From a virus: a stretch of 53,143 nt of DNA. Shown here piece after piece: positions 1 through 11,090 of this stretch. Both the position numbers and the translations under genes were made by a program. Numbering within the stretch: position 1 is the stretch's first letter; each line of letters starts with the position of its first letter. Under the pieces are notes generated by a model. It searched no databases. It was not told the origin of the DNA and saw nothing but the letters and a program-made list of their open reading frames with translations. Location: the IMG/VR virus record IMGVR_UViG_3300045988_065744. One strand, 5' to 3'.

Positions 1-99
1 AGTATTTCAAGAAGTCTCTGGGCTTGCAGGTGAAGCGAAAGCAGGCAGCCCGCCGGAAAGCGGCGCTGGAAGCAAAGAAGGAAGCTGCTACAAAAAAAC
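1..99. repeat. Terminal direct repeat, copy 1 (identical to 53045..53143)
   Basis: agtatttcaagaagtctctgg...gctgctacaaaaaaac is present at both window ends, 99/99 identical by direct comparison. Confidence 0.95.
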
Positions 100-131
100 A
101 GTGACGGCAGAGCCGCAGGAGGGCGCAGAAG

Positions 132-614
132 ATGCGGATTGAAGATGCAAAAATGGTTTTGGACTACGCGGCGGATATCCAAAAGAAGCTGCGCACCATT
201 GCGGCAGAAAAAGACCTGCTGGAAGGCGATCTGAACTGTCTGCGCGGCATTGAGTACGGCGGAATGCCGCACGGAAGCGGACACAGCGACAGCACCGCAG
301 ACATTGCCCAGAGAGCCGAAGAACTGGGGAGCCTTGACCGTTTGCGGGAACTGGAAGTACAAGAAGTGGTGCTGCGTGGGGACTTTGCTGTGATCCGCGC
401 ACAAATCTGGTCACTAAAGACTGTGTACACAACAGTGATTTCGGAATTATGGCTGTGTGGCCACAGTTCGGAGGAAACGGCGCATAAAATCGGGTACAGC
501 GTATCGCACACAAAGCGGATAAAAGCAGAAGCTTTGGTGCGGCTTGCTGAAAGCCTTGACGATATGCCGCAGGCGGAAGAAATCCGTGCGCGTGCGTATA
601 ACGCGCGTAAGTAA
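132..614 (+). CDS. Putative late-gene transcriptional regulator (sigma-70 region-4-like HTH, RinA/ArpU-like)
   Basis: 160 aa, RBS gcaggagg. The C-terminal ELWLCGHSSEETAHKIGYSVSHTKRIKAEALVRLAESL looks like a sigma region 4 HTH. It is the last gene of the rightward early/middle operon. Confidence 0.45.
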   Translation: MRIEDAKMVLDYAADIQKKLRTIAAEKDLLEGDLNCLRGIEYGGMPHGSGHSDSTADIAQRAEELGSLDRLRELEVQEVVLRGDFAVIRAQIWSLKTVYTTVISELWLCGHSSEETAHKIGYSVSHTKRIKAEALVRLAESLDDMPQAEEIRARAYNARK

Positions 615-796
615 AGCACACCGGCTTAGAGAATGCAAACGCTGCACCCCCGGAAGGGTCTACGAAAAACGTGAAAGCATTTCACCTTCGCGCGTATGAT
701 ATAAAGGCAAATTAGGCCGGGAAAGCTTACGCGTATGTGAAACATTTCCGCGAAACGCAAAAACGCCGCTGGGAAACAAACACGAATACCCGAAAC

Positions 797-854
797 AATG
801 AAAAATGAGCAAAGAAATACCCGGCGGGCTGTATGGCCTACCGGGTATTTCTTT
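797..854. terminator. Bidirectional intrinsic terminator
   Basis: Perfect 14-bp stem aaagaaatacccgg (811-824) / ccgggtatttcttt (841-854). T-rich tracts follow on both strands. It abuts the stop of 853..1092(-). Confidence 0.6.
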
Positions 855-1092
855 ATTCGTCAATTTTCAAGACGTGGATCGTGGGCGGCTCTGGCGTCGT
901 GCGGTAGTAACGACCATCTTCGTAATTCAGGTCTGTCACATGATCCCACCACGAAATACAGCCGTGCTCCCGCTGGGCGCTCTCCATGGCTGCTTTTGCC
1001 TGCTGTTCGGTCAAACCATCGAATAATAACCGGCTACCGTCTGCAAAGCTGGCAACAAGTCGCCAAGGAGCGAAAACTTCACCTTCAATCAC
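853..1092 (-). CDS. Hypothetical protein
   Basis: 79 aa, GTG start preceded by aaaaaggag. Separated from the upstream leftward genes by a terminator. Confidence 0.5.
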   Translation of the reverse strand: MIEGEVFAPWRLVASFADGSRLLFDGLTEQQAKAAMESAQREHGCISWWDHVTDLNYEDGRYYRTTPEPPTIHVLKIDE

Positions 1093-1177
1093 AAAAACAT
1101 CTCCTTTTTACGCATTTTGTAAAGCATAGTTCAATTTCTGGCACGAAAAATAGAAAATTCGTTGATGAAAGTATAAC

Positions 1178-1205
1178 ACAAAAAGCCCCGGCGGGATACC
1201 GGGGC
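1178..1205 (-). terminator. Intrinsic terminator of the leftward operon
   Basis: Stem gccccgg (1185-1191) / ccggggc (1199-1205), followed on the minus strand by TTTTT (plus-strand A-run 1180-1184). Confidence 0.5.
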
Positions 1206-1213
1206 GAGTACGA

Positions 1214-1462
1214 TTAAAAGCAATAGGATTCTTTGCCCAGTGGGCTTTCAAATCCAAAACAAACGACAAAACCGTCGCAAGTTTGCTGAATCGTGTTCAG
1301 CTGATAGCTGTGCCCACAAGTATAGCTTGATTTCAAGCGATACTTGAAACAGAAGACGTCTTCACCCCGCCGCCATGCGAGCGCCAGTGAGCGCTTCAGT
1401 GCGCGGTCGTCCGGGAAAATGTGCTTTTTGCCAGAGCAGTCAACGAAAAATGGTTTAAACAT
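1214..1462 (-). CDS. Hypothetical protein (accessory island)
   Basis: 82 aa, AGGAGG RBS upstream of the ATG. Confidence 0.55.
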   Translation of the reverse strand: MFKPFFVDCSGKKHIFPDDRALKRSLALAWRRGEDVFCFKYRLKSSYTCGHSYQLNTIQQTCDGFVVCFGFESPLGKESYCF

Positions 1463-1517
1463 AACAAAAACCTCCTATTTCATGATGGAAAAGCCCACAA
1501 AAACGGGCGAGTTAAGG

Positions 1518-1787
1518 TTAGGCCTGCTCAAAGTGGGACATGGTGCGCCGGGAAAGCGCAAAAGCGATAGCGGGCACGTCGTCGTCCGTTTCGCTGACGG
1601 CCTTGATCGCTTCGGCAATGCGGGTCAGATCGTCAACCGTGATGCCGCCCGGTTTGCGGCTGGACGTGTCCGCGTCGGACAGGATGCGGTCATATTCTTC
1701 ACAATCGCAGCGGGTACAGTAGTCGTTGGCAATGCAGGCGTAGCGTGCGCCCTCAGCGTCAAGAATGCGGGTCTCTTTGAGTTTCAT
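1518..1787 (-). CDS. Hypothetical protein (accessory island)
   Basis: 89 aa, GGAGG RBS. Cys-rich centre CIANDYCTRCDCEEY. Confidence 0.55.
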   Translation of the reverse strand: MKLKETRILDAEGARYACIANDYCTRCDCEEYDRILSDADTSSRKPGGITVDDLTRIAEAIKAVSETDDDVPAIAFALSRRTMSHFEQA

Positions 1788-1946
1788 GTGGGATACCTCC
1801 GTGTTATGTATTATCGCTCGTCCCGGTAGGGATTCGAGTTTTTAGATTTGCCGGTCTTGGTATATAGATACCGGGGCCGGTGACGTGTTGCCATTGCGGG
1901 CTGGGATGGGGCTGCTTTACGGTGCAACCCCGTCAGAGTATCCGTT
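1788..1946. repeat. Intergenic GC-rich repeat, family A copy 1
   Basis: Core gggatggggctgctttacggtgcaaccccgtcagag (1903-1938). About 110 bp is alignable with copy 2. Confidence 0.8.
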
Positions 1947-2858
1947 TTACTGCTGGCCGTCCAGAACCTCCATGACGCGGTGGGCGGCATATTTGCCATT
2001 GTCGTTAAGCTGGCGCTGCCAAACGCCCTGCGACGGTGCCCACCTGAACCCGTTGCGCTTGAGAAGTGCTCTGGTTTCGTCGTCCGGCTTGCCGTCGAAC
2101 TGGAACTGAACACGCATTGCTTCAGCGTTTTCCCGGTAGGTGTAGCCGTCGTGCTCATCTTCCACGGGCTGCGCGGCTTTGGCTGCTTCCAGCTTTGCAA
2201 TACGGTCCTTTGCCCGCTTGATGCTGGCGTTGCTGTTTTGCAGTGCATAGGCGGGATAAGGGCAACCGTAGAGAGCCAGCGGAGAACCGCCGTTGAAAAC
2301 GTGGTCATTTTCAAGCCATGCACGTTCCTTGGCGGTAACGCCGGGGCAGCCGTCAAGCGTTTTGTGCTTGCGATAGTAGGCGTTCGCGTCTTTCATGGTC
2401 TGGTGCGCGGTTTGGAGCTGGTCGAGTTTTGCGCGGAGATAGTCCAGCGCTTCGGGATCGTCGGACTTGACAGCCAGCGTGTGCGCCCGCTTGAGCATCT
2501 GCAAATAGTGGTCAGCCTTGCGGAAGTTCTCGCGGTTCGCGTCCCACGCTGCTACCTGCTTCTCTTTCTTGCGAACAGGAAAGTTTGCGGGGCCGCAGAT
2601 GAGCACAGACGGGCAACGGGTCCCGATCTCGTTTTCACGGTTGATCGCTTCGGCCAGCACGGCGCAATAGCGGCTGTACAGCCATTCGGCCCGCTCCCGC
2701 TGGTCTGCGGTGGCGCACTTGGGTTTGACCTGCTCAAGGATCGCGGCGGCTTCGGCGCACTGGGCGTTGTAGCTGGCCGTTGCGCTTCCCTCCACATAGT
2801 CGGAGAAAGAAGACAGCTGTTTTGCAATGCGGGCGTTCTCTTCGTTGATGATAGCCAT
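1947..2858 (-). CDS. DUF3560-like domain protein
   Basis: Start moved to MAIINEEN (GGAGG RBS). The C-terminal RVQFQFDGKPDDETRALLKRNGFRWAPSQGVWQRQ matches my memory of the DUF3560 signature seen on conjugative elements and phages. Confidence 0.6.
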   Translation of the reverse strand: MAIINEENARIAKQLSSFSDYVEGSATASYNAQCAEAAAILEQVKPKCATADQRERAEWLYSRYCAVLAEAINRENEIGTRCPSVLICGPANFPVRKKEKQVAAWDANRENFRKADHYLQMLKRAHTLAVKSDDPEALDYLRAKLDQLQTAHQTMKDANAYYRKHKTLDGCPGVTAKERAWLENDHVFNGGSPLALYGCPYPAYALQNSNASIKRAKDRIAKLEAAKAAQPVEDEHDGYTYRENAEAMRVQFQFDGKPDDETRALLKRNGFRWAPSQGVWQRQLNDNGKYAAHRVMEVLDGQQ

Positions 2859-2994
2859 TGTGTAAACCTCCAAATATTCAGTTTTCAAAGCGTTTCGCTC
2901 GCCCTGGTAGGGCTTGCGGTTTTCGTGTGGCGGCCCTTGCGGGCTGGGACGGGGTCGCTTTACGGTGCGGCCCTGCTGAGGTGTCCGGGGCGGG
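2859..2994. repeat. Intergenic GC-rich repeat, family A copy 2
   Basis: Core gggacggggtcgctttacggtgcggccctgctgag (2946-2980), plus tattcagttttcaaa next to the RBS. Confidence 0.8.
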
Positions 2995-3495
2995 TCAGAT
3001 GATCCATTCGGCGTTGTTATATTCGGCGGCATTCTGGACAATGAACGCATACAGTGCACGGGAAGTGCCGGAAAGAGCTTTTAGAACGGGGTTGTTCCGG
3101 GTTGCATCTTCGTTGCACTGGTAGATGAAACTGTCCAGCAGCTTTGTGAATGCGTAAAAATCGCGGTCGATTGTATAGCGCCCTGCATTCCAGTCGAGAA
3201 GATGGAGCAGGTGCGGAAAGATGGCCGGCATGGTGGGAAAATCTTCGGCGTCGGCTGTCTCCAAGTGGTAGCGGCCAGTGTATGCGGCATCGTTCAGCTT
3301 GTAGAGAACGGCGTAAATCTTGCGGTCATCAAAGAGAAAGTCGTGCGGATATCGGCAGGCGCTCAGAGCGTCGGACAACTCCGGCAGCTCGTAGGATGCG
3401 GCAAGGTGGCACATACCGCCGGCCCCGTTGAGGATGAATGCCAGACCGTGAGCGACGGTGGCAATGTGCTTTTCGGAAAGTTGAATGCAAGACAT
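2995..3495 (-). CDS. Hypothetical protein (accessory island)
   Basis: 166 aa, GGAGG RBS. Confidence 0.6.
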   Translation of the reverse strand: MSCIQLSEKHIATVAHGLAFILNGAGGMCHLAASYELPELSDALSACRYPHDFLFDDRKIYAVLYKLNDAAYTGRYHLETADAEDFPTMPAIFPHLLHLLDWNAGRYTIDRDFYAFTKLLDSFIYQCNEDATRNNPVLKALSGTSRALYAFIVQNAAEYNNAEWII

Positions 3496-3533
3496 GGTAA
3501 AACCTCCTGTTATTCTGTTGTGTCTGGGCGTGG

Positions 3534-3609
3534 ACCCATGAGCGCCCGCCCCGGCGGGGCGGCTGGGCTTGCACCAGCGGCGGCGGGATGCCGTCGGCCT
3601 TGCGGGTCA
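3534..3609. repeat. Intergenic GC-rich repeat, family B copy 1
   Basis: 76 bp, 74/76 identical to 5169-5244. It ends on the stop codon (tca) of the upstream minus-strand gene. Confidence 0.9.
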
Positions 3610-4191
3610 TTCGGAAAACATTTTCTTGCAGAGCGTTTCAACCTCTGCGGTGGGCTTGATGGGCAGCATGATAACGGAAATCGTCGGATCGCTGGCGCTG
3701 ACAGCGTACACGGGGGAATAGCCGCGCGTCGTGCCGTGATAGGTGAATTGCACCGGGTTCACCATGCTGTCGTAGTCGGCATTTATCAAGATGGGCGTTG
3801 TCCCGATGTGGAAAAGCCTTGCAAGACCGCTCTTCTTTTTGCCGGTAGGGATGTCCTGCAAGAACGGCGTGCGCTCAACGGGCTTTTCGTTGGGGGCATG
3901 GCGCTTGAAGATGTCCACCAGATCCGGCGCGTTCTCTTCCACTTCAAAACCATACTGGGCGGAAATGATGGTCACGCCGTCGGAGGGGCATTCGCGGAAT
4001 GTCACGGGCTGGATCACGTCGGCATACAGGACAGAGGGCAGCTTGAACGCAGTGTATGCCGTGATGATATAGACCAAATCACCCCGGCGGGTGACGCGGA
4101 CGCCGCGCTGATGCTTCGCCTGCTCCTTGAGATAGGTTTGGATCGCCTTGACATTGAGACCGAACAGGGTGAAGTTGGTAGAAAGTTTCAT
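3607..4191 (-). CDS. Hypothetical protein (accessory island)
   Basis: Start at MKLSTNF (AGGAGG RBS), 194 aa. Confidence 0.6.
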   Translation of the reverse strand: MKLSTNFTLFGLNVKAIQTYLKEQAKHQRGVRVTRRGDLVYIITAYTAFKLPSVLYADVIQPVTFRECPSDGVTIISAQYGFEVEENAPDLVDIFKRHAPNEKPVERTPFLQDIPTGKKKSGLARLFHIGTTPILINADYDSMVNPVQFTYHGTTRGYSPVYAVSASDPTISVIMLPIKPTAEVETLCKKMFSE

Positions 4192-4292
4192 TGTATGATC
4201 CTCCTGATATTCAGTTTTCAAATTGTCCCGGCGGTGTGCCGGGTGTGGGGCGGGGCCGCTTTTCTGGGTGCGGCCCTGCTAGGGCATCCCAT
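4192..4292. repeat. Intergenic GC-rich repeat, family A copy 3
   Basis: tattcagttttcaaa plus hairpin gggccgc-ttttctgggt-gcggccc. Confidence 0.75.
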
Positions 4293-5141
4293 TCAGCAGA
4301 AAGAAGTCTGCTCGCAGTATGCCGGGGCGCTGTCTGCGCTGGCGGCGGGGGCTGCTTTGGGCTGGGGTTTTGCTTCGGGTTTCGGATCGGTGGCAGGTGC
4401 GGCGGCTGTGGCTGTCTGCTTTGCATCCTCTGCGGCCTTCCGGGCTTTGCGCCACTTTTCCAGCGCGGCAGCCTGTGCCGGGCGGTCATCTTCGGAAACT
4501 GCCATAAATTCCCGCTTTGCCTTGTCCGCTGCTTTTTTCAGATCGGCGGTGCTGGGGGAGTTAGTCTGCTGGGGAGCCGGTGCAGGCTGTGCGGTGGTCT
4601 GGGGCTTGTCCTGCCGGGCGGCAGCCTTGGCGGCTTTGCGCTGGTCTGCCAGCATCTTGTTATAAGCCCGGATGTCATCAAGGGACTTAAAGCGCTTTTC
4701 TGCGGGCTTCTTCGGTTCGCGCTTCTCAACCTGCCAGCGGCCGAACAAATAAGCCACTGTCATATAGTAATCGCCGCCGCCTTGCTCAGCGGCTGCCCGG
4801 GTCAGCGGGTCAGCGTCGGCGGGCAGGTCTTCGGGCTTGGGGCTGTCCTTGTACTTCCAGAGCTTGCAGCGGATCACGGCCTTTTCGCCGCGCTTGACGC
4901 TCAGCCCGCCGTTTCTGGGGCTTTTCCAGCCGTCGAACGTGTGGAAAAGAGCGGCGCACAAGTCGCCTTCTGCGATCTCCACCGGATCGGGTGCGGTGCC
5001 GTCTTCGCCCGGCTCCACGATGATCTTCGCAGCAGCGCCGGCGATTTCGGCGGCGGTGTAGTAGTGAACGGCCAGCTTGTGCAGCTGTTCGGGGGTGTAC
5101 TGGGCACAAACGGCGGTTGCAATAAGATCATTGTTTCTCAT
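4293..5141 (-). CDS. Hypothetical protein with Ala/Pro/Lys-rich C-terminal tail (accessory island)
   Basis: Start at MRNNDLIA (AAGGAG RBS), 282 aa. The low-complexity C-terminal third is KAAKAAARQDKPQTTAQPAPAPQQ... Confidence 0.6.
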   Translation of the reverse strand: MRNNDLIATAVCAQYTPEQLHKLAVHYYTAAEIAGAAAKIIVEPGEDGTAPDPVEIAEGDLCAALFHTFDGWKSPRNGGLSVKRGEKAVIRCKLWKYKDSPKPEDLPADADPLTRAAAEQGGGDYYMTVAYLFGRWQVEKREPKKPAEKRFKSLDDIRAYNKMLADQRKAAKAAARQDKPQTTAQPAPAPQQTNSPSTADLKKAADKAKREFMAVSEDDRPAQAAALEKWRKARKAAEDAKQTATAAAPATDPKPEAKPQPKAAPAASADSAPAYCEQTSFC

Positions 5142-5168
5142 GTTGTAAAACTCCTTTCGTGGGCTATA

Positions 5169-5244
5169 ACCCATGAGCGCCCGCCCTGGCGGGGCGGCTG
5201 GACTTGCACCAGCGGCGGCGGGATGCCGTCGGCCTTGCGGGTCA
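5169..5244. repeat. Intergenic GC-rich repeat, family B copy 2
   Basis: 74/76 identical to 3534-3609. It ends on the stop codon of 5242..5472(-). Confidence 0.9.
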
Positions 5245-5472
5245 AGAAAAGATGAGCGTTCCACGGGCCAAACGGGCGCGGACGGCGGCAAGACTCAGAT
5301 AGTCACAAGCGTTGTCCCATCCATCCCCACGATAGCCGCGAATGTAGGGGTAAAGTGTGACGGGGTTTGGAGAATCCCAGGCGACGGCGTGGTGAACGCA
5401 GCGCGTGTCATCGCTGACATAAACGGTGAGTCTGCCAACGGTGTGCATGGTGTAGGTTTTGCAGGTCTTCAT
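5242..5472 (-). CDS. Hypothetical protein (accessory island)
   Basis: 76 aa, GGGAGG RBS. Confidence 0.55.
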   Translation of the reverse strand: MKTCKTYTMHTVGRLTVYVSDDTRCVHHAVAWDSPNPVTLYPYIRGYRGDGWDNACDYLSLAAVRARLARGTLIFS

Positions 5473-5573
5473 GGTAAAGCCTCCCGTATTCAGTTCTCAT
5501 TATCCCCGGCGGGGTGCCGGGTGTTGGGACCGGGTCGCTTTACGGTGCGGCCCGTCAAGGTGTCCGGCTGGGA
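5473..5573. repeat. Intergenic GC-rich repeat, family A copy 4
   Basis: tattcagttctca plus core gggaccgggtcgctttacggtgcggcccgtcaagg (5526-5560). Confidence 0.8.
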
Positions 5574-5918
5574 TCAGGCGACGGCATCGGCAGCGCAAAA
5601 GCTGTGCGGGATTTCGGCGGCGACCTTTTCCAGCGTTTCGCAGTCGGTGTGATAGGATGGCTCCATATCGCCGGTGATCCGGTCGGTATGGTAGAAAGTC
5701 ACCTGCCAGCCGCCCGGGGTGCGGGTGCTGGGGGCTACAATGATCTGCCGCCCGGGGTAGGTGTACCGGGTGACGGTGTAGCGCCGCACCTGGGAGATGA
5801 TCGCGGCGGTGCGGGCTGCAAGGGTGCGCGCAAACTCGCAATCTTCGCGGTCATCAAAAAAGAGCTCTGCCGGGTCGCCGGTGACGTCAGGCAGCGGATC
5901 AAGCTGGTATTCCTTCAT
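5574..5918 (-). CDS. Hypothetical acidic protein (accessory island)
   Basis: 114 aa, AAGGAG RBS. Confidence 0.55.
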   Translation of the reverse strand: MKEYQLDPLPDVTGDPAELFFDDREDCEFARTLAARTAAIISQVRRYTVTRYTYPGRQIIVAPSTRTPGGWQVTFYHTDRITGDMEPSYHTDCETLEKVAAEIPHSFCAADAVA

Positions 5919-6032
5919 GCTGTAACACTCCTTTGCTCGTGGTGTACGTCCGTATAATCTCCCGACTGCTGCCGGGGTAGTGGGGCGGGGCTGCTTTACG
6001 GTGCAACCCTGCTAGAGCGTCCGCGCTGGGCG
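5919..6032. repeat. Intergenic GC-rich repeat, family A copy 5
   Basis: Core ggggcggggctgctttacggtgcaaccctgctagag (5982-6016). Confidence 0.8.
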
Positions 6033-6377
6033 TCAATCGATGCCGCAGCAGCTCCAAAAAGCGTCGATTACTCGATCATCGCTAAAATCATCAGGTGTGC
6101 CGTTTGCATCAATGACAAGCTGCACGCGGTCGAAGATGTGCAAATCGGTGTTGGCGTCAACGGTAAAAAACCAGTCGTCACCGTCGCCCAGGTCGCTGCA
6201 CCAGACCTGCACGCCGTCGCCGTCAGCGGTCATGCCCTGCACCTGCGCCGGGACGATGTAGCGGCCCAGCGGGCCAACAGTGTAGGGGCAGCCGGTCGCG
6301 GCGGCTTTCGGTGCGGCGCCTGCCAGGATGGCGGCGACCATTGCGGCGGTGGTGATGATCTTGTTGAGTTTACGCAT
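6033..6377 (-). CDS. Secreted small protein (signal peptide), first gene of the leftward operon
   Basis: Start at MRKLNKIITTAAMVAAILAGAAPKAAA (AGGAGG RBS). Hydrophobic N-terminus, then an acidic beta-rich region. Confidence 0.6.
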   Translation of the reverse strand: MRKLNKIITTAAMVAAILAGAAPKAAATGCPYTVGPLGRYIVPAQVQGMTADGDGVQVWCSDLGDGDDWFFTVDANTDLHIFDRVQLVIDANGTPDDFSDDRVIDAFWSCCGID

Positions 6378-6452
6378 GGTAAAATCCTCCTGCAATCGTT
6401 GGTTTTGTTCGGCTTGCGTCCGGCTGTCTGCCGTGGCGCTTGCTGTGGCATT

Positions 6453-6481
6453 ATCTTAGCATGACGGAATGCCATTGTCAA
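6453..6481 (-). promoter_or_regulatory. Near-consensus promoter of the leftward accessory operon
   Basis: The minus strand reads TTGACA (6481-6476), a 17-nt spacer, then TAAGAT (6458-6453). The spacer contains 13-mer repeat 1. Confidence 0.65.
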
Positions 6482-6555
6482 GCATGACGGAATGCAATCT
6501 ACTTTTTGCACAAAAACATGACGGAATGCTTGTGCATTTTTGCATGGCGGAATGC
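6460..6555. promoter_or_regulatory. Four direct 13-bp operator-like repeats CATG(A/G)CGGAATGC
   Basis: Copies at 6460-6472, 6483-6495, 6517-6529 and 6543-6555, lying between the divergent promoters. Confidence 0.7.
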
Positions 6556-6564
6556 AGGCTGATT

Positions 6565-6573
6565 TGCTATAAT
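6565..6573 (+). promoter_or_regulatory. Extended -10 promoter (TGCTATAAT) for the RHH regulator gene
   Basis: tgctataat lies 31 nt upstream of the ATG at 6604. The -35 is weak. Confidence 0.5.
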
Positions 6574-6603
6574 ATAATAAACGCGCGCGAAAGGGATGAT
6601 AAA

Positions 6604-6822
6604 ATGCCAATTTCAGAGAAAAAGAAAATCACAAATAGCCGATATATTGCAAAATGCGATTCAATCCAGATTCGCCCGCCGAAAGATCGCGGCGGAGAAA
6701 TCCGCGCCGCAGCTGCTGCCGCTGGGCAAAGCGTGCAGGCCTATATTTTGCAGGCTTGCGCCGAAAGAATGGCCCGCGATGGATTCACCCCGGCGGAATC
6801 TGGGGAAGAAGGGGGACTATAG
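6604..6822 (+). CDS. Ribbon-helix-helix (Arc/CopG-like) DNA-binding protein
   Basis: 72 aa. The pattern KKITNSRYIAKCDSIQIRPPKDRGGEIRAAAAAAGQSVQAYILQACAERMARDG (beta strand plus two helices) is typical of RHH regulators. Confidence 0.55.
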   Translation: MPISEKKKITNSRYIAKCDSIQIRPPKDRGGEIRAAAAAAGQSVQAYILQACAERMARDGFTPAESGEEGGL

Positions 6823-7010
6823 GGGGTTACTGGGGAGGCTATAGCTCACTAAGCTCTAGCCCTACACATAAAGCACTACCCGGTAAAGTGGAGAATCTGA
6901 CCCCTCCGACAACGGCGCAAAGTACCGCCTGGGAAAACAGTGAAACAGTACCCCCGGCGGCGTTCCGTGGAGCGGGGACAGGGCAGAAGATCACAGCAGC
7001 ACACAGCACA

Positions 7011-7060
7011 GCAGGCAGGACGACGCCACACACGGCGCGCCCTGCCTGCTTCTTTTTTCT
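7011..7060 (+). terminator. Intrinsic terminator after the RHH gene
   Basis: 9-bp stem gcaggcagg (7011-7019) / cctgcctgc (7041-7049), followed by ttcttttttct. Confidence 0.5.
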
Positions 7061-7345
7061 CCTGATCCACGCCCGCCGCCCTGCCTGATCCGCAGCACAT
7101 CGGGCACCAGCGCCCGCACTGATCCGCCGCGCTGGTTGCTGATCTGCCGCACAGACTGCACCGGATCACGCCGCCCGCCTGCCTGATCCATAGCACAGCA
7201 GACCACGCCGCCGCCCTGATCCACACCGGCAGCAGGTACCCGCCCGCCCTGCCTGCTTTCATGCCCTGGCACACAGCACAGCAGCCAGCGCCGCCACCAG
7301 CCGCCCGCCCTGACCAGCCCACCAGCCGCCCGCCCGACGAGGCCG
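7035..7345. repeat. C-rich non-coding tract with degenerate direct repeats (candidate cosB / terminase-binding sites)
   Basis: At least five copies of a CGCC(C/G)GCC(C)TG(CCTG)ATCC-like motif: 7071-7098, 7169-7199, 7204-7227, 7239-7260, 7298-7320. It sits directly upstream of the terminase genes. Confidence 0.55.
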
Positions 7346-7349
7346 CCCC

Positions 7350-7392
7350 GCGCGGGCGCGAGGTACTGCGCGCGCGCCCGCGCTAATTAGCG
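7350..7392. repeat. Inverted repeat plus 12-bp perfect palindrome (candidate cosN-like site)
   Basis: gcgcgggcgcg (7350-7360) pairs with cgcgcccgcgc (7373-7383). cgctaattagcg (7381-7392) is a perfect palindrome. Confidence 0.4.
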
Positions 7393-7523
7393 GGTCCAAC
7401 AGCGCAAAAGTTCGCTAGATTTTAATGCAAATTTTCCATTTCCGGCAGACCCCCGGAAAAAAGTTCCCCGGGGGTCAAAAAAGGCGGGAAGGCAAAAGAT
7501 GATACTCTATGATACTGATTTTC

Positions 7524-7532
7524 TGCTATAAT
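7524..7532 (+). promoter_or_regulatory. Extended -10 promoter (TGCTATAAT), candidate late promoter
   Basis: The same tgctataat element occurs at 6565 and in the repressor promoter. It is preceded by gatactctatgatactgat (tandem gatact). Confidence 0.45.
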
Positions 7533-7555
7533 TGGTACAGTGGATTTTTGACAAA

Positions 7556-7588
7556 GCCCGGCGGCAGCGATGCCGTGGGGCTTTTGTT
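7556..7588 (+). terminator. Leader terminator 1 of the late operon
   Basis: Stem gcccggcggc / gccgtggggc (one mismatch), followed by ttttgtt. Confidence 0.45.
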
Positions 7589-7630
7589 ATACAGAGCTGC
7601 TTACAATTCGTAAGCGACCCGCAAAATATA

Positions 7631-7667
7631 ATGCTCTGCCGGGTGCACCCGGTGGGGCATTTTTTAT
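7631..7667 (+). terminator. Leader terminator 2 of the late operon
   Basis: About 13-bp stem (atgctctgccggg / cccggtggggcat) with tgca loop, followed by ttttttatt. It sits immediately before the terS RBS. Confidence 0.55.
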
Positions 7668-7680
7668 TGGAGGATGCACA

Positions 7681-8436
7681 ATGCCCAGGCGGAGCGACAA
7701 GAAAGATGCCGCCCGCGAAGAATACCTACGCCGTATGCGAGAAGATGGCGCGGTGAATCTTGCGGCGTTGGCAGAAGATATCGGCGTGAACTATGACACG
7801 GTGCGCCGGTGGAAGTCCAAGGAAAAGTGGGACGAGCTGGAAGTGCCGCCAAAAAAGAAACGTGGCGGCCAACCTGGGAACCAGAACGCAGAGGGGAACC
7901 CCGGCGGCGGTGCCCCGCCCAGAAATAAGAACGCCCAGAAACACGGCGGCTATGCAGCGGTGTTCTTCGATCAGCTGACGGATGATGAAAAGTTCATCAT
8001 GGACAAAACGCCGAAGACCGCTGTTAAAGCCCTTCGGGAAGAACTGGGCATTCTGAAAGTTCAGGAAAAAAGAATCCTCAGCCAAATCACAGCGCTGGAA
8101 AACGCGGATCAAGATGAACTATACATCAGCACGCTGCTTGATATGCGAGTGCCGGGAAAGGTAAACGGCGCGAAACAAGACGGTGCAAACCAGAACATGG
8201 GTATGTACTCGAAGGAGAGCGCGTTCACCAGAAAGATGCATTTGCAGGAAGCCTTGAACAAGGTGGAGGGCAGAATCGCAACGATCATCGGAAAGCTACA
8301 GCAGGCAGAAGAAACCGAAGCCCGCATGAAGCTGGAACGTGAGCGGATAGAATTTGCAAAGGCCCGCGCAATTGGCGCGTTCGATGTGCCGGATGAAACG
8401 GAAGAGGATGCAGACAATGACCCTTTACACAAGTAA
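7681..8436 (+). CDS. terS: Terminase small subunit-like protein (N-terminal HTH, YjcR/XtmA type)
   Basis: Start at MPRRSDKK after ttggagga. HTH LAALAEDIGVNYDTVRRWKS and the GN.NA.KHG-type motif GGQPGNQNAEGNPGGGAPPRNKNAQKHGGY. Coiled-coil C-terminus. Confidence 0.7.
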   Translation: MPRRSDKKDAAREEYLRRMREDGAVNLAALAEDIGVNYDTVRRWKSKEKWDELEVPPKKKRGGQPGNQNAEGNPGGGAPPRNKNAQKHGGYAAVFFDQLTDDEKFIMDKTPKTAVKALREELGILKVQEKRILSQITALENADQDELYISTLLDMRVPGKVNGAKQDGANQNMGMYSKESAFTRKMHLQEALNKVEGRIATIIGKLQQAEETEARMKLERERIEFAKARAIGAFDVPDETEEDADNDPLHK

Positions 8437-8994: not shown

Positions 8995-10845
8995 GTGACA
9001 AAGAAAAGAAAGACTGTAGAGGTAGCCCCGGAAGTGAAGGAGCTATTTGCCCGGGTGCTGCTGAAACTGAAACCACCGCCGAAGCTGACAGTCAGCGAGT
9101 GGGCAGATAAGTACAGAAGAATGTCACCGGAAGCCAGCGCGGGAACGGGGCGGTGGCACACAGACAACGCGCCGTATCAGCGCGCCGTGATGGATGCCAT
9201 TGGTGATCCGCATATCCGCATGGTCGTGGTCAAGACATCATCCCAGATCGGAAAGACGGAAATCATCTTAAACACGCTGGGATATGCGATTGACTACACC
9301 CCGGCACCGACACTGGTAATGCAGCCGACGGTAGAAATGGGACAAACCTTTTCCAAGGATCGTCTGGCACCCATGATCCGCGACACCCCAGAATTGCGAA
9401 AAAAGGTCGATGCCAAGAGCCGCTTCTCCGGGAATACGATCATGCAGAAAGCATTTCCGGGTGGACACGTCACCATCGTTGGAGCAAACAGCCCGGCGGG
9501 GCTTGCATCCCGACCGATCAAGTTTGTTCTGGCAGACGAAGTGGACAGATATCCGGCATCGGCTGGCACCGAGGGCGACCCGCTGACGCTGGCAAGAACC
9601 CGCCAGACAACATACTGGGACAAGAAAACGGTGCTGGTTTCCACGCCAACCATCAAGGGCACCAGCAGGATTGAAAAAGCTTGGCTGGAAAGCACGATGG
9701 AAGAGTGGACGGTGCCGTGCCCGGAATGCGGAGAGTATCAACCGCTTGTTTGGGCAAACGTAGTTTTTGATCGGGAGAACTGGCCGCACGGTGGCGTGCA
9801 GTACCGGTGCGAATACTGCGGATGCATTGCCGGTGAATATCGCTGGAAAGCACAGGGCAGGAAGGGAAGGTACGTTGCGCTACACCCGGAACGGGAGGTG
9901 CGCGGATTTCACCTGAATGTCCTTGCGTCCTCTTTCTGTGCATGGAGCGGAATCGTTACAGAGTTTCTATCCGCAAAGGAAGCGCTGGATCACGGCAACC
10001 CTGAACTGATGAAGGCGTGGGTCAACACCAAGTTGGGGGAAACATGGGAAGAGCGCGGCGAGAGTGCGGACGATATGGCACTGTACAGCCGCCGCGAAAT
10101 GTACCCGGCAACTGTACCGGCTGGCGTGCTGGTGCTGACCTGCGGCATCGACGTTCAGGATGATCGTTTCGAGCTGGAACTTGTGGGCTGGGGAGTTGGA
10201 AAGGAAAGCTGGGGCATTCGATATCAGAAGATATATGGCGACCCGCTTAAACCTCAGATTTGGGAAGACCTTGACAAGTTCCTGCAAACCCGCTGGCGAA
10301 GGGAAGACGGCGTGGTGCTGAACATCCTTGCGGCAGCAATGGACACCGGCGGACACCATACGGACGCAGTTTATCGTTTCTGTCTGGAACGCTGGCAGCG
10401 GCACCTTTATGCCATCAAGGGGCGCGGCGGTGTGGAAACAGTGTTCGTGTCGAAGCCGTCAACCGGCAACCGTGTGGGCGTACCGCTGTACACCATCGGT
10501 GTTGATAACGGCAAGACGATGGTGTACCAACGTCTGAACGTTCAGACACCGGGTCCGAACTACTGCCACTTCCCGCTGGATGAAGCGGCAGGGTATGACG
10601 AAACCTACTTCAAAGGCTTAACAGCAGAGAAGCAGGTCGTGCGCTGGAAGAAGGGCAGACCCACGACAGCGTGGGAGCTGAAAGACCCGAACTATCACCG
10701 CAACGAACCGTTGGACTGCCGAGATTACGCACTGGCTGCACTGGAAATTGCAAACCCTGTTTTGGAAGATCCGGACGCGGAAACGGAAATGCCGGTGGTA
10801 CAGCATCCAGCAGGACGAAGAATTGTATCGGGAGGTATTGGATAA
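8995..10845 (+). CDS. terL: Terminase large subunit, lambda GpA family
   Basis: 616 aa, GTG start. LTVSEWADKYRRMSPEASAGTGRWHTDNAPYQRAVMDAIGDPHIRMVVVKTSSQIGKTE parallels the lambda gpA N-terminus and Walker A region. Confidence 0.9.
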   Translation: MTKKRKTVEVAPEVKELFARVLLKLKPPPKLTVSEWADKYRRMSPEASAGTGRWHTDNAPYQRAVMDAIGDPHIRMVVVKTSSQIGKTEIILNTLGYAIDYTPAPTLVMQPTVEMGQTFSKDRLAPMIRDTPELRKKVDAKSRFSGNTIMQKAFPGGHVTIVGANSPAGLASRPIKFVLADEVDRYPASAGTEGDPLTLARTRQTTYWDKKTVLVSTPTIKGTSRIEKAWLESTMEEWTVPCPECGEYQPLVWANVVFDRENWPHGGVQYRCEYCGCIAGEYRWKAQGRKGRYVALHPEREVRGFHLNVLASSFCAWSGIVTEFLSAKEALDHGNPELMKAWVNTKLGETWEERGESADDMALYSRREMYPATVPAGVLVLTCGIDVQDDRFELELVGWGVGKESWGIRYQKIYGDPLKPQIWEDLDKFLQTRWRREDGVVLNILAAAMDTGGHHTDAVYRFCLERWQRHLYAIKGRGGVETVFVSKPSTGNRVGVPLYTIGVDNGKTMVYQRLNVQTPGPNYCHFPLDEAAGYDETYFKGLTAEKQVVRWKKGRPTTAWELKDPNYHRNEPLDCRDYALAALEIANPVLEDPDAETEMPVVQHPAGRRIVSGGIG

Positions 10846-11079
10846 ATGGCAGGAATTACGCTGGAACAGGCAGAAGCAAAACTTCAAACCTGGATGGAAG
10901 CGGAAGAAAAAATCGCCAGCGGACAGGGTTACTCCATTGGCGACCGCCGCCTGACCCGCGCCGACCTTTACACGGTCCGTGGCGAGATCGAATACTGGAA
11001 CAACAAAGTGAAAGAACTGGAAACGGCGGAAACGACTGGAAGAAACAAGATGTACCGGTTTGTGCCGCGTGATATTTGA
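10846..11079 (+). CDS. Head-tail joining protein, gpW-like
   Basis: 77 aa directly after terL. ...GQGYSIGDRRLTRADLYTVRGEIEYW... fits the lambda W family pattern and position. Confidence 0.6.
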   Translation: MAGITLEQAEAKLQTWMEAEEKIASGQGYSIGDRRLTRADLYTVRGEIEYWNNKVKELETAETTGRNKMYRFVPRDI

Positions 11080-11090
11080 CGGAGGGCAGC

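Follow-up and report, generated by a model that had tools for sequence, protein, structure and literature searches.

The window, a stretch of 53,143 nucleotides, is from a Faecalibacterium-type phage and carries a leftward operon with minus-strand genes at 1518-1787, 1947-2858, 2995-3495, 3607-4191, 4293-5141, 5242-5472, 5574-5918 and 6033-6377. The seven consecutive gaps between them, previously described as 100-159 nt long, measure 159, 136, 111, 101, 100, 101 and 114 nt from the gene coordinates, and in every one of them lies a conserved element, on the minus strand, which is the one transcribed (Table 1). Elements are present at seven of the nine gene boundaries of the operon. The boundaries at 1463-1517 and 1093-1213 have none, and several gene boundaries in related phages also lack one, so the elements are not obligatory. 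Upstream of the operon lies a promoter-like site (10 of 12 consensus matches and an extended -10; a consensus match only), and leftward transcription probably ends at an intrinsic-terminator-like hairpin. This hairpin is the sole strong terminator-like site, and none was found on the minus strand within 1788-6032, which agrees with the earlier view that the repeats are not ordinary terminators.

Table 1. Coordinates of the features found in the leftward operon, in the order of transcription
Feature	Position	Strand	Bits	Details
Promoter-like site	6453..6481	-		TTGACA, 17-nt spacer, TG-TAAGAT; upstream of the operon's first gene
RAGATH-5 copy e (RF02685)	5981..6024	-	65.9	S1a GCGG 6024-6021; L1 6020-6013; P1 6012-6003 with 5994-5985; S1b CCGU 6001-5998; CCCA tail 5984-5981; begins 8 nt past stop of gene 6033-6377
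P2 after copy e	5961..5976	-		CCCGGC-AGCA-GUCGGG
RAGATH-5 copy d	5525..5567	-	66.5	S1a CCGG 5567-5564; S1b CCGU 5545-5542; CCCA tail 5528-5525; begins 6 nt past stop of gene 5574-5918
P2 after copy d	5505..5521	-		CCCGGC-ACCCC-GCCGGG
5'-UTR box	5487..5499	-		UGAGAACUGAAUA; directly upstream of Shine-Dalgarno of gene 5242-5472
Twister-sister #2, four-way-junction type (RF02681)	5164..5245	-	76.6	5' strand of P1 overlaps UGA stop of gene 5242-5472; predicted scissile C^A step between 5175 and 5174; predicted 3' product begins AUGGGUUAUAGCCCA, 33 nt before ATG at 5141
RAGATH-5 copy c, variant	4246..4291	-	53.8	S1a UGGG 4291-4288; S1b CCCA 4268-4265; begins 1 nt past stop of gene 4293-5141
P2 after copy c	4227..4243	-		CCCGGC-ACACC-GCCGGG
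5'-UTR box	4208..4220	-		UGAAAACUGAAUA; upstream of Shine-Dalgarno of gene 3607-4191
Twister-sister #1 (RF02681)	3529..3610	-	76.5	P1 overlaps UGA stop of gene 3607-4191; predicted scissile C^A step between 3540 and 3539; predicted 3' product begins AUGGGUCCACGCCCA, 44 nt before ATG at 3495
RAGATH-5 copy b	2945..2988	-	60.1	S1a CCGG 2988-2985; CCCA tail 2948-2945; begins 6 nt past stop of gene 2995-3495
P2 after copy b	2933..2944	-		GCCC-GCAA-GGGC; the 'GCAA tetraloop' of the sequence-only reading
5'-UTR box	2875..2887	-		UGAAAACUGAAUA; upstream of Shine-Dalgarno of the 303-aa primase-like gene
RAGATH-5 copy a	1902..1945	-	61.2	S1a ACGG 1945-1942; CCCA tail 1905-1902; begins 1 nt past stop of gene 1947-2858
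Weak P2 after copy a	1901-1890	-		GCC-CGCAAU-GGC; only 3 bp
Intrinsic-terminator-like hairpin	1185..1205	-		8 pairs, 7 of them G-C; then UUUUUGUGUU

A covariance-model search of the whole window placed all seven elements above the curated Rfam thresholds (34 bits for twister-sister, RF02681, and 50 bits for RAGATH-5, RF02685), with E-values from 7e-16 to 4e-06. The repeats are far beyond chance, and we are close to certain that family B is twister-sister and family A is RAGATH-5. The sequence-only reading was right that there are two conserved families, and overlooked that both belong to Rfam. Thermodynamic folding by itself is unexceptional for these elements (folding energy z-scores from +0.5 to -2.8). 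That reading had also proposed a covariance-model search and a comparison with relatives: the same arrays are present in related phages, and so is covariation. They were found in the cultured phage FP_Toutatis and in hundreds of gut viral contigs, sometimes with hammerhead ribozymes, and other phage contigs mix twister-sister, RAGATH-5 and Hammerhead_II in same-strand arrays.

Twister-sister is a ribozyme class reportedly due to Weinberg and colleagues in 2015. As had been claimed, 2 of 76 positions distinguish the two copies in the window, first delimited as 3534-3609 and 5169-5244, and both lie flush with the stop codon of the gene upstream. Both span the full model (positions 1-81) and contain the conserved segments GCAAG, GUGCAAGCC and GGCGCUCAU, and their minimum-free-energy fold recovers the four-way junction. 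The predicted scissile step was transferred onto GCGCUC^AU from a crystal structure in which the cleavage step is C62-A63 within a G-C-U-C-A-U strand (PMC5660989). Structurally, family B is no different from the known ribozyme (RF02681; structure 5T5A; four-way-junction form, PMC5660989), with which it shares the four-way junction, the L1 loop (GCAAG / GCGCUCAU), the SL4 loop (GUGCAAGCC), the C-A scissile step and the phage context. Our data add to this picture the location of P1 at or over the upstream stop codon and a predicted 3' product that can often refold into a new 5'-end hairpin, which was found in 57 of 105 phage twister-sisters vs. 19 of 105 shuffled controls. The segment CCCGCAAG had been taken for a GCAA-tetraloop hairpin. 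For family B this is ruled out, the segment being the 3' end of P1 plus the conserved internal loop GCAAG; for the first two copies of family A, a small hairpin is indeed there.

RAGATH stands for 'RNAs Associated with Genes Associated with Twister and Hammerhead ribozymes', after the strategy used for their discovery. All five copies announced for family A were found, each above the gathering threshold over the entire 53-position model, near phage genes and beside validated ribozymes, as in known RAGATH-5. The core sequence proposed for them occurs in only four of the five: the copy in 4192-4292 escapes that consensus because its loop differs (GCACCCAGAAAAGC on the RNA strand). Its UGGG/CCCA pairing is a compensatory change with respect to the other copies. 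The box TATTCAGTT(T/C)TCA, described for three copies, was located in all three (Table 1).

In a census of 301 RAGATH-5 copies from 121 loci, 272 had an upstream ORF with its stop 1-19 nt (mode 6) before the motif, and the median distance from CCCA to the next start codon was 55 nt. The consensus line of RF02685 (cmscan output) is a hairpin alone. Beyond that line, we observed a pseudoknot with two parallel triples, then an invariant N-CCA tail and, past the end of the model, a second hairpin that varies (P2). The minimum-free-energy fold recovers P1 and P2, and the sequences point to an H-type pseudoknot in which NCGG of the 5' flank base-pairs with CCGN in the hairpin loop. For pseudoknot plus stem, 91% of cells are paired, a level matched in 0 of 500 shuffles; compensatory variants are UGGG/CCCA, GCGG/CCGC and CGGG/CCCG, joined by CUG/CAG and AUGGG/CCCAU in an independent set.

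The top two mutual-information pairs of the whole motif connect the flank with the stem (flank 9-stem 35 and flank 10-stem 36). Their complementarity in a parallel register is 98.8%, with 114 double changes, vs. 71.8% and zero double changes in the antiparallel one. Parallel covariation of two 5'-flank pyrimidines with two stem purines is the signature of base triples, which we predict here. Four triple combinations occur, with exceptions in 8 of 143 copies, and 52 of 54 copies in the independent set obey the rule; since the covarying haplotypes are related by descent, these combinations amount to few independent events. P2, which comes in 70 distinct sequence versions, was found in 126 of 144 copies, as against 44 of the 144 shuffled controls. 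Covariation is also seen at the terminal pair 13-42 (80 copies with G-C, 32 with A-U, 3 with C-G), and the unpaired A5, A23, AAA and CCCA are extremely conserved: C43 at 97%, C44-C45-A46 essentially without variation, with rare copies in the independent set carrying CCUCA in place of CCCA. The spacers downstream are A-rich and unstructured.

Triplex H-type pseudoknots are known from the SAM-II and preQ1-II riboswitches, telomerase RNA and luteovirus frameshift pseudoknots. Like RAGATH-5, they have an A-rich loop 3 and a loop 1 that occupies the major groove of stem 2, with isosteric covariation of U·A-U and C+·G-C. What sets RAGATH-5 apart is its place behind a stop codon rather than within an ORF or a 5' leader, and it shows no evidence of ligand binding or recoding.

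An orthologous boundary can hold twister-sister in one phage and RAGATH-5 in another. Behind gene cluster g13 stands twister-sister in the window and in the related loci L053 and L021, but RAGATH-5 in L051 and L089; in front of gene g2, the window has twister-sister, and L053, L021 and L016 have RAGATH-5. This interchange could come from cassette recombination instead of functional equivalence. Gene order varies among the relatives, with elements at every joint, and the syntenic blocks that the window shares with L016, L021, L053, L067, L087 and L088 stop within gaps (for example at 5155, 5970, 2993, 3525 and 1944). An extra block of the window, 5156-5969, has elements at both edges. The question raised earlier of whether homologous elements flank different cargo can be answered in the affirmative: the same element was found beside different genes in relatives. 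The suggestion of recombination boundaries is supported as far as the pattern goes: homology blocks do break inside the gaps, which does not make recombination the selected function.

We give a probability of about 60% to the general role of these elements as cistron-boundary RNA processing or uncoupling elements. A polycistronic leftward transcript would run from the promoter-like site to the terminator-like hairpin, and the elements would act on this RNA. Twister-sister, by family membership, would cut itself at the C^A step near its 3' end, so that the upstream cistron would keep the structured ribozyme body at its 3' end and the downstream cistron would gain a new 5'-OH end, where the freed P1 strand GGGU could re-pair with a downstream (A/G)CCCA into a small hairpin. 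RAGATH-5 fills the same niche, about 6 nt past the stop and about 55 nt before the next start. In its compact pseudoknot, two flank pyrimidines would form U·A and C·G triples within the stem's major groove, and the AAA loop, the N-CCA tail and then P2 come next. Both families would uncouple the stability and translation of neighbouring cistrons, twister-sister via self-scission and RAGATH-5 probably without cutting itself; RAGATH-5 may be a mechanically robust barrier to exonucleases or translocases, or a tRNA-acceptor-arm mimic cut by host RNase P.

Structured elements at successive boundaries are also known from T7 early RNase III sites, REP stabilisers and operon mRNAs cut by RNase P, which set the stability or translation of single cistrons and to which we liken the elements of the window. 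Those sites need host RNase III, exonucleases or RNase P on plain hairpins, whereas family B would be autocatalytic and family A a triplex pseudoknot. In Firmicutes, a 5'-OH end can be an RNase J1 substrate, as seen with the glmS ribozyme, so self-cleavage could destabilise rather than protect the downstream gene. The flush fit to the stop codon could be mere genome compaction. Ribozymes of this kind have been suggested to process polycistronic transcripts (PMC6765202). For family B, a full-length and high-scoring match to the self-cleaving twister-sister ribozyme supports the RNA processing put forward in the sequence-only reading; for family A, context and boundary interchange make it plausible. 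Antitermination, put forward there as well, gains no support, since one copy would be enough for a processive signal and repetition at every boundary would not be needed.

What RAGATH-5 does at these boundaries can be explained in several ways. A non-cleaving mechanical barrier or stabiliser is possible, if doubtful; it might block 3'-to-5' exonucleases entering the upstream cistron, or else 5'-to-3' RNase J, Rho or read-through ribosomes, perhaps much as REP stabilisers do in E. coli operons or as exonuclease-resistant viral RNAs do. Mechanical resistance is known from frameshift pseudoknots and those viral RNAs, and it goes with the architecture seen here, an H-type pseudoknot that has triples in the major groove and a third loop rich in A. 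The location directly past stop codons and the A-rich, unstructured spacers downstream would suit a barrier. So would the absence of self-cleavage (PMC6765202), but the invariant CCCA tail and the substitution by validated self-cleavers at the same boundaries are left unexplained. If RAGATH-5 were itself self-cleaving and had been missed in vitro, all seven boundaries would be cut autonomously. It shares the niche of twister-sister and hammerhead and interleaves with them, Rfam types it as a ribozyme, its unpaired nucleotides are extremely conserved as in catalytic cores, and P2 directly after CCCA recalls the hairpin at the post-cleavage 5' end of twister-sister. Some RAGATH RNAs may be ribozymes inactive only under the conditions tried, according to a review (PMC6765202); for RAGATH-5, the reason would then be wrong construct ends (for example no 5' pseudoknot strand or P2) or the lack of the right ion, pH or cofactor. 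We consider self-cleavage itself rather unlikely: the additional RAGATH structures, as a group, were not cleaved in experiments and their function is unknown (PMC6765202), RAGATH-5 had no similarity to validated ribozyme classes at E<=1, and triplex pseudoknots of about 45 nt are just as typical of RNAs that are not catalytic.

Absent self-cleavage in vitro would be explained if RNase P, and not RAGATH-5, did the cutting. RAGATH-5 would then mimic a tRNA acceptor/T-arm that the host enzyme cuts 5' of the helix, a 'tRNA punctuation' without tRNAs, which we judge unlikely. By its anatomy, P1 would stack on the pseudoknot stem into a helix 12-14 layers long. The pair at the end of that helix, 13-42, covaries and is G-C like G1-C72 of tRNA, and N-CCA comes next. 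RNase P, which uses RCCA pairing and a 12-bp measure, cleaves acceptor/T-stem hairpin model substrates; tRNA-like structures with pseudoknots, operon mRNAs and the phage RNAs M3 and C4 are also processed by it (PMC11143913). However, resemblance is the whole case. The leader strand, in triples within the same helix groove, may hinder the enzyme, the discriminator is C and not the usual purine, and the rare CCUCA copies depart from CCCA; no tRNA gene lies at equivalent boundaries in 48 related loci, and ARAGORN found nothing tRNA-like in those loci or in the window. A primary role at the DNA level is quite improbable. The 45-80-bp repeats would serve as homology patches or recombinase sites for cassette swap, loss or gain, conceivably between co-infecting phages, in the manner of lambdoid boundary sequences or integron attC sites. 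Synteny blocks that break in gaps, the element-bounded extra block and the elements at reordered joints would follow from it, and yet only the sense strand bears the constraints, which are of RNA type (covarying pairs, triples and G-U wobbles), orientation and distance from stop codons are fixed, and the ribozyme class to which family B belongs has been validated. In phages, selection alone would lead one to expect mosaic junctions at gene borders, and no attC-like core sites were seen by eye. Finally, a pseudoknot 5-8 nt past a stop could be a recoding or termination signal that stimulates stop-codon read-through or frameshifting, as classical stimulators have such spacing and a triplex architecture. 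We regard this as highly improbable: the spacing varies from 1 to 19 nt over all three frames, and therefore no reading frame through RAGATH-5 is conserved, no conserved extension ORF follows the motif, and the next gene has its own strong Shine-Dalgarno and start codon.

We thus return to processing or uncoupling at cistron boundaries as our preferred reading. The sequences themselves show which families the elements belong to, their anatomy and covariation, where they lie, that they are interchangeable and that they coincide with mosaic junctions; cleavage in vivo, its consequences for mRNA stability and any activity of RAGATH-5 are what we infer. Both element families were already catalogued; their arrangement gives new clues to the role of RAGATH-5.

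The window encodes, within its ~53 kb, a small terminase subunit, a gpA-type large terminase and a lambda-family portal, and a block of minus-strand genes lies directly upstream of this packaging module. The first seven gaps of this leftward operon measure 114, 101, 100, 101, 111, 136, and 159 nt. The sequence-only reading had described seven consecutive gaps, each with a conserved element, and this was confirmed: at curated thresholds, Rfam gave exactly seven matches in the whole window, all on the minus strand and one in each of the seven gaps. They belong to twister-sister (RF02681, two copies, E about 1e-16 each with the Rfam covariance model) and RAGATH-5 (RF02685, five copies, a to e). 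No other Rfam family reached its gathering threshold elsewhere in the window, and a permissive scan of positions 1-8000 (E ≤ 1) gave no further ribozyme class or family, save one spurious lncRNA match. Both repeat families are already catalogued in Rfam, and the repeat itself is no new discovery. The features of the window are collected in the table.

Coordinates of the features of the window
Feature	Position (nt)	Strand	Remarks
Twister-sister (RF02681) copy #1	3529-3610	-	76.5 bits vs gathering 34, model positions 1-81
Twister-sister (RF02681) copy #2	5164-5245	-	76.6 bits vs gathering 34, model positions 1-81
RAGATH-5 (RF02685) copy a	1895-1945	-	61.2 bits vs 50, model 1-53
RAGATH-5 (RF02685) copy b	2938-2988	-	60.1 bits vs 50, model 1-53
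RAGATH-5 (RF02685) copy c	4239-4291	-	53.8 bits vs 50, model 1-53
RAGATH-5 (RF02685) copy d	5518-5567	-	66.5 bits vs 50, model 1-53
RAGATH-5 (RF02685) copy e	5974-6024	-	65.9 bits vs 50, model 1-53
Minus-strand gene	6033-6377	-	
Minus-strand gene	5574-5918	-	
Minus-strand gene	5242-5472	-	
Minus-strand gene	4293-5141	-	gene family g2
Minus-strand gene	3607-4191	-	gene family g13
Minus-strand gene	2995-3495	-	
Minus-strand gene	1947-2858	-	
Minus-strand gene	1518-1787	-	
Minus-strand gene	1214-1462	-	
Minus-strand gene	853-1092	-	
Promoter-like site	6481-6453	-	TTGACA, 17-nt spacer, TG-TAAGAT; precedes leftward gene block
Terminator-like hairpin	1205-1185	-	sole strong one on minus strand
13-nt box	2875-2887	-	
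13-nt box	4208-4220	-	
13-nt box	5487-5499	-	
Degenerate copy of 13-nt box	3498-3523		
Extra conserved module, gap 1	1800-1890	-	downstream of RAGATH-5
Extra conserved module, gap 2	2888-2932		downstream of RAGATH-5
Four direct repeats	6457-6565		at 6457, 6480, 6514, 6540
Rightward gene	6604-6822		72 aa
C-rich stretch	6990-7400		
Small terminase subunit gene	7570-8436		
Large terminase gene	8995-10845		gpA-type
Portal gene	11076-12728		lambda-family
Inverted repeat	811-854		between convergent genes 132-614 (+) and 853-1092 (-)

Ordinary intrinsic terminators were rejected, in line with the earlier remark that no U-tract follows the copies: there is no minus-strand site with a G+C-rich hairpin and a U-tract within 1788-6032. 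The folding z-scores of the elements range from +0.5 to -2.8 and are unremarkable because the background is G+C-rich. The case for the elements therefore rests on the covariance models and on covariation.

The operon products are phage proteins, mostly of unassigned function: in PHROGs, the match of a 303-aa protein carries the annotation primase and those of four others are families of unknown function, and a Pfam comparison gave nothing significant. Around the operon, we observed three other repeated sequences. The four direct repeats of ~16 nt, (A/T)(A/T)GCATGACGGAATGC, lie where the leftward operon and the small rightward gene (no Pfam match) diverge, overlap the promoter-like site and look like operator sites of a repressor. 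Directly upstream of the small terminase gene of the gpA-type (cos-type) terminase, the C-rich and apparently non-coding stretch holds several imperfect direct repeats of 20-40 nt (CCGCCCGCCCTGCCTGATCC.CAGCAC...) and may be a terminase binding or cos region; Tandem Repeats Finder gave only a short 7-nt repeat there. The near-perfect 19-nt inverted repeat between the convergent genes (AAAGAAATACCCGGCGGGC / GCCTACCGGGTATTTCTTT) is likely a bidirectional terminator.

Both twister-sister copies retain the conserved segments GCAAG, GUGCAAGCC, and GGCGCUCAU, with the SL4 loop GUGCAAGCC kept save U for C at position 43 in copy #2. The internal loop L1 between helices P1 and P2 (5' GCAAG / 3' GCGCUCAU) is identical in the two copies, and their minimum-free-energy folds present P1, P2, and three hairpins as a four-way junction. 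The CCCGCAAG motif of this family had been taken for a tetraloop hairpin, which was wrong: its letters cover the last part of helix P1 and the conserved GCAAG strand of the catalytic internal loop. In the crystal structure, the scissile step is C62-A63, in the strand G59-C60-U61-C62-A63-U64 (PMC5660989). In the window, GCGCUC^AU corresponds to this strand, close to the motif's 3' end, and the predicted cuts fall between 3540 and 3539 (copy #1) and between 5175 and 5174 (copy #2), which would yield a 2',3'-cyclic phosphate and a 5'-OH.

The 5' strand of twister-sister P1 begins at the stop codon of the upstream gene (A-UGA-CCC), and in most of 105 distinct twister-sisters of viral contigs GCAAGG follows the end of the stop codon by 3-13 nt. 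Cleavage would leave the ribozyme body on the upstream cistron, and the downstream RNA would start with AUGGGU..., 44 nt (#1) or 33 nt (#2) before the next ATG. In 57 of the 105 twister-sisters vs. 19 of 105 shuffled controls, a downstream (A/G)CCC(A) offers a partner for the freed (U)GGGU, so that a hairpin can form at the new 5' end; both copies of the window have this option.

RAGATH-5 presents an interrupted hairpin, of which the loop (ACCG...AAA) and the flanks (CGGA... and ...CCCA) are conserved. Its invariant columns are G3 G4 A5; G21 C22 A23 C24 C25; A30-32 G33; and C44 C45 A46. A pseudoknot joins the opening four nucleotides (NCGG) to the hairpin loop (CCGN), with variants such as GCGG/CCGC, CCGG/CCGG, ACGG/CCGU, UGGG/CCCA (copy c of the window), and CGGG/CCCG; an independent set of loci adds CUG/CAG and AUGGG/CCCAU. 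Over 124 distinct sequences, stem and pseudoknot were 91% paired, and none of 500 shuffles reached the observed values.

An unbiased scan of mutual information over all column pairs ranked two non-Watson-Crick contacts above every helix pair: flank 10 with stem 36 (0.87 bit) and flank 9 with stem 35 (0.82 bit). They follow a parallel register rule (GA with CU, AG with UC, AA with UU, GG with CC), with 98.8% complementarity and 114 double changes. The opposite register, in which flank pyrimidines and stem purines would pair antiparallel, was rejected, at 71.8% complementarity and no double changes. The rule holds in 52/54 copies of the independent loci and in all five copies of the window (UC/AG twice, CU/GA twice, CC/GG once). 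Major-groove triples have as their signature a pyrimidine strand that runs alongside the purine strand of a helix in the same direction, U facing A and C facing G; this is the geometry expected of loop 1 in an H-type pseudoknot, and the invariant AAA would then be loop 3. Even as A, position 36 mostly faces C (66 of 124 cells unpaired), so that its real partner seems to be the flank base.

At the 3' side, the terminal pair 13-42 covaries (G-C, A-U, or C-G) and is followed by C43 (97%) and an essentially invariant C44-C45-A46. A second hairpin, P2, starts at most 7 nt from CCCA in 126 of 144 distinct contexts vs. 44 of 144 shuffled controls. Its sequence comes in 70 versions, and all five copies of the window have it, a weak one in copy a. 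Set against the Rfam RAGATH-5 model only, the pseudoknot, triples, and P2 proposed here go beyond its hairpin; the string 'RAGATH-5' had no occurrence in searchable papers. One large subgroup, about 40 IMG/VR loci (e.g., 355-480 of contig L002, L017, L026), displays RAGATH-5 and P2 (GCCC-AAAA-GGGC) followed by a strong promoter-like sequence rather than directly by a ribosome-binding site. This sequence consists of TTGCAA, a 17-nt spacer, and TGATATACT / TGGTATAAT, and the transcript predicted from it opens with a GGGC-AAAA-GCCC hairpin.

Further conserved modules are found in the gaps. A 13-nt box, UGA(A/G)AA(C/U)UGAAUA, has 29 occurrences in related loci, always 0-4 nt upstream of the Shine-Dalgarno sequence, always after a hairpin, before at least six different genes and only in this phage clade; it is a possible translational enhancer or binding site for a regulator. 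Gaps 1 and 2 share a hairpin, (G/U)CCCUACC(A/G)GG(G/A)CGAGCGA, that covaries in relatives (in contig L053, CCCCCUACCGGGGAG), and a palindrome, CCGG..GGTATCTATATACC..CCGG, occurs in gap 1 only. Neither had an Rfam match at E ≤ 1.

RAGATH-5 is associated with phage genes and with twister-sister or hammerhead ribozymes. An exact pattern from its core was found in at least 120 IMG/VR stretches, and an nhmmer census over 1.08 Mb gave 306 copies. In 272/301 copies, 1-19 nt (mode 6) separate the first nucleotide of the element from the end of a preceding ORF of 50 or more codons, and the next start codon lies at a median of 55 nt past the CCCA tail in the 301-copy census. Among species-representative genomes, true copies were found only in Faecalibacterium, Oscillospiraceae, and 'Clostridiales' assemblies. 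The nearest named phage, Faecalibacterium phage FP_Toutatis, carries seven copies in ~100-nt gaps of a syntenic leftward operon flanked by a Q-like gene and the small terminase, and a prophage of cultured F. intestinale CLA-AA-H281 carries at least seven. Rfam on twelve related loci gave 53 RAGATH-5 and 4 twister-sister copies and no other class, and loci picked via twister-sister presented same-strand arrays that mix twister-sister, RAGATH-5, and Hammerhead_II. Thus, the arrays are a common trait of this phage group and not a peculiarity of the window. One genuine copy was observed in a 3.9-kb contig from a Muribaculaceae bin (Bacteroidota MAG, L133), probably a phage fragment binned in error and not a sign of a wider host range.

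The two families replace each other at the same joints. In gene-order maps of 36 arrays, the same families recurred in many different arrangements, and most joints held an element. The g13 gene is followed by twister-sister in the window and in the related contigs L053 and L021, and by RAGATH-5 in L051 and L089; the g2 gene is preceded by twister-sister in the window and by RAGATH-5 in L053, L021, and L016. A 76-aa gene with its twister-sister stands ahead of g2 in the window and ahead of family g5 in L016. In BLAST comparisons with relatives, homology blocks of the operon end inside the gaps (e.g., at 1944, 2993, 3525, 5155, and 5970). When compared to L053 and L088, the window has an extra block, 5156-5969, with two genes and their elements, bounded by one twister-sister and one RAGATH-5. 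The check proposed by the sequence-only reading, whether homologous elements flank different cargo genes, was therefore positive.

Elements and recombination joints thus coincide; selection for recombination does not follow. The alternation of repeats and ORFs also suggested integron-attC-like cassettes, which we set aside since both repeats are RNA families with sense-strand-specific constraints. For the same reason, the RNA role seems primary. In some relatives (L067 at 1660-1926, L119, L110, L042, L015, L010, and L102), two RAGATH-5 copies stand back to back, ~165-215 nt apart with no gene between them, and could mark places where a cassette was lost through recombination of one copy with another.

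We suggest, with a probability of about 0.6, that both element families would act as cistron uncouplers. Judging from its family, twister-sister would sever the transcript just past each stop codon's structured tail, and processing of polycistronic transcripts has been suggested as a ribozyme role (PMC6765202). Since RAGATH-5 occupies the same site and trades places with twister-sister, its outcome would most likely be comparable, by one of three routes. The foremost of them, in itself doubtful, is a non-cleaving triplex pseudoknot that would stall exonucleases or translocases. It is unlikely that RAGATH-5 is a self-cleaver so far uncaught in vitro, given that RAGATH structures beyond the three named classes, as a group, 'did not cleave in experiments' and have no assigned function (PMC6765202). 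Of the roles listed by the earlier reading, RNA processing and boundary sequences are plausible and antitermination is not. A recoding signal was rejected, being an unlikely role with a spacing and frame relative to the stop codon that vary.

The remaining route, in which RAGATH-5 would imitate a tRNA acceptor/T arm and be cut by host RNase P, is quite improbable. This enzyme cuts acceptor-stem hairpins via RCCA pairing as well as pseudoknotted tRNA-like structures, and phage M3 and C4 RNAs and operon mRNAs are also documented substrates (PMC11143913). As substrate criterion we used a ~12-bp coaxial helix ending in 3' N-CCA with a single-stranded 5' leader. RAGATH-5 would offer a helix of 12-14 layers (counting one or two mismatches and the unpaired A23), a G-C end, and N-CCA in >97% of copies; its 5' leader is engaged in triples, as register covariation indicates. 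However, rare copies have CCUCA tails, and no tRNA genes stand at equivalent boundaries, so this route remains a lead. Punctuation by real tRNAs was rejected: ARAGORN found no tRNA or tmRNA genes in the window or 48 related loci, and tRNAs occurred in contigs L142 and L145 only, on the opposite strand.

More tentatively, and with the odds against it as a whole, RAGATH-5 would be a non-self-cleaving, new functional class of phage mRNA 'punctuation mark', whose triplex pseudoknot with a tRNA-like G-C/N-CCA end would recruit host RNase P or stall host exonucleases at every cistron boundary, and the marks would double as cassette-shuffling joints among Faecalibacterium phages. If true, RAGATH-5 would depend on host enzymes for a task that twister-sister and hammerhead ribozymes perform by themselves at these boundaries, and the reshuffling of cassettes would be a by-product.

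The window adds an unusually regular example of two known families. It is a very clean case, with one operon, seven consecutive boundaries, and two families that replace each other in relatives, and it provides testable rules of structure and position for RAGATH-5, namely a pseudoknot with two isosteric base triples, an N-CCA tail, and a site beside the stop codon. The array is also present in cultured FP_Toutatis and in a prophage of a cultured F. intestinale strain. The discoverers' 2019 review gave the reason for the shared gene neighbourhood of these ribozymes as unexplained (PMC6765202). Our finding bears on why gut phages strew their operons with small self-cleaving ribozymes, and on the orphan RAGATH-5.
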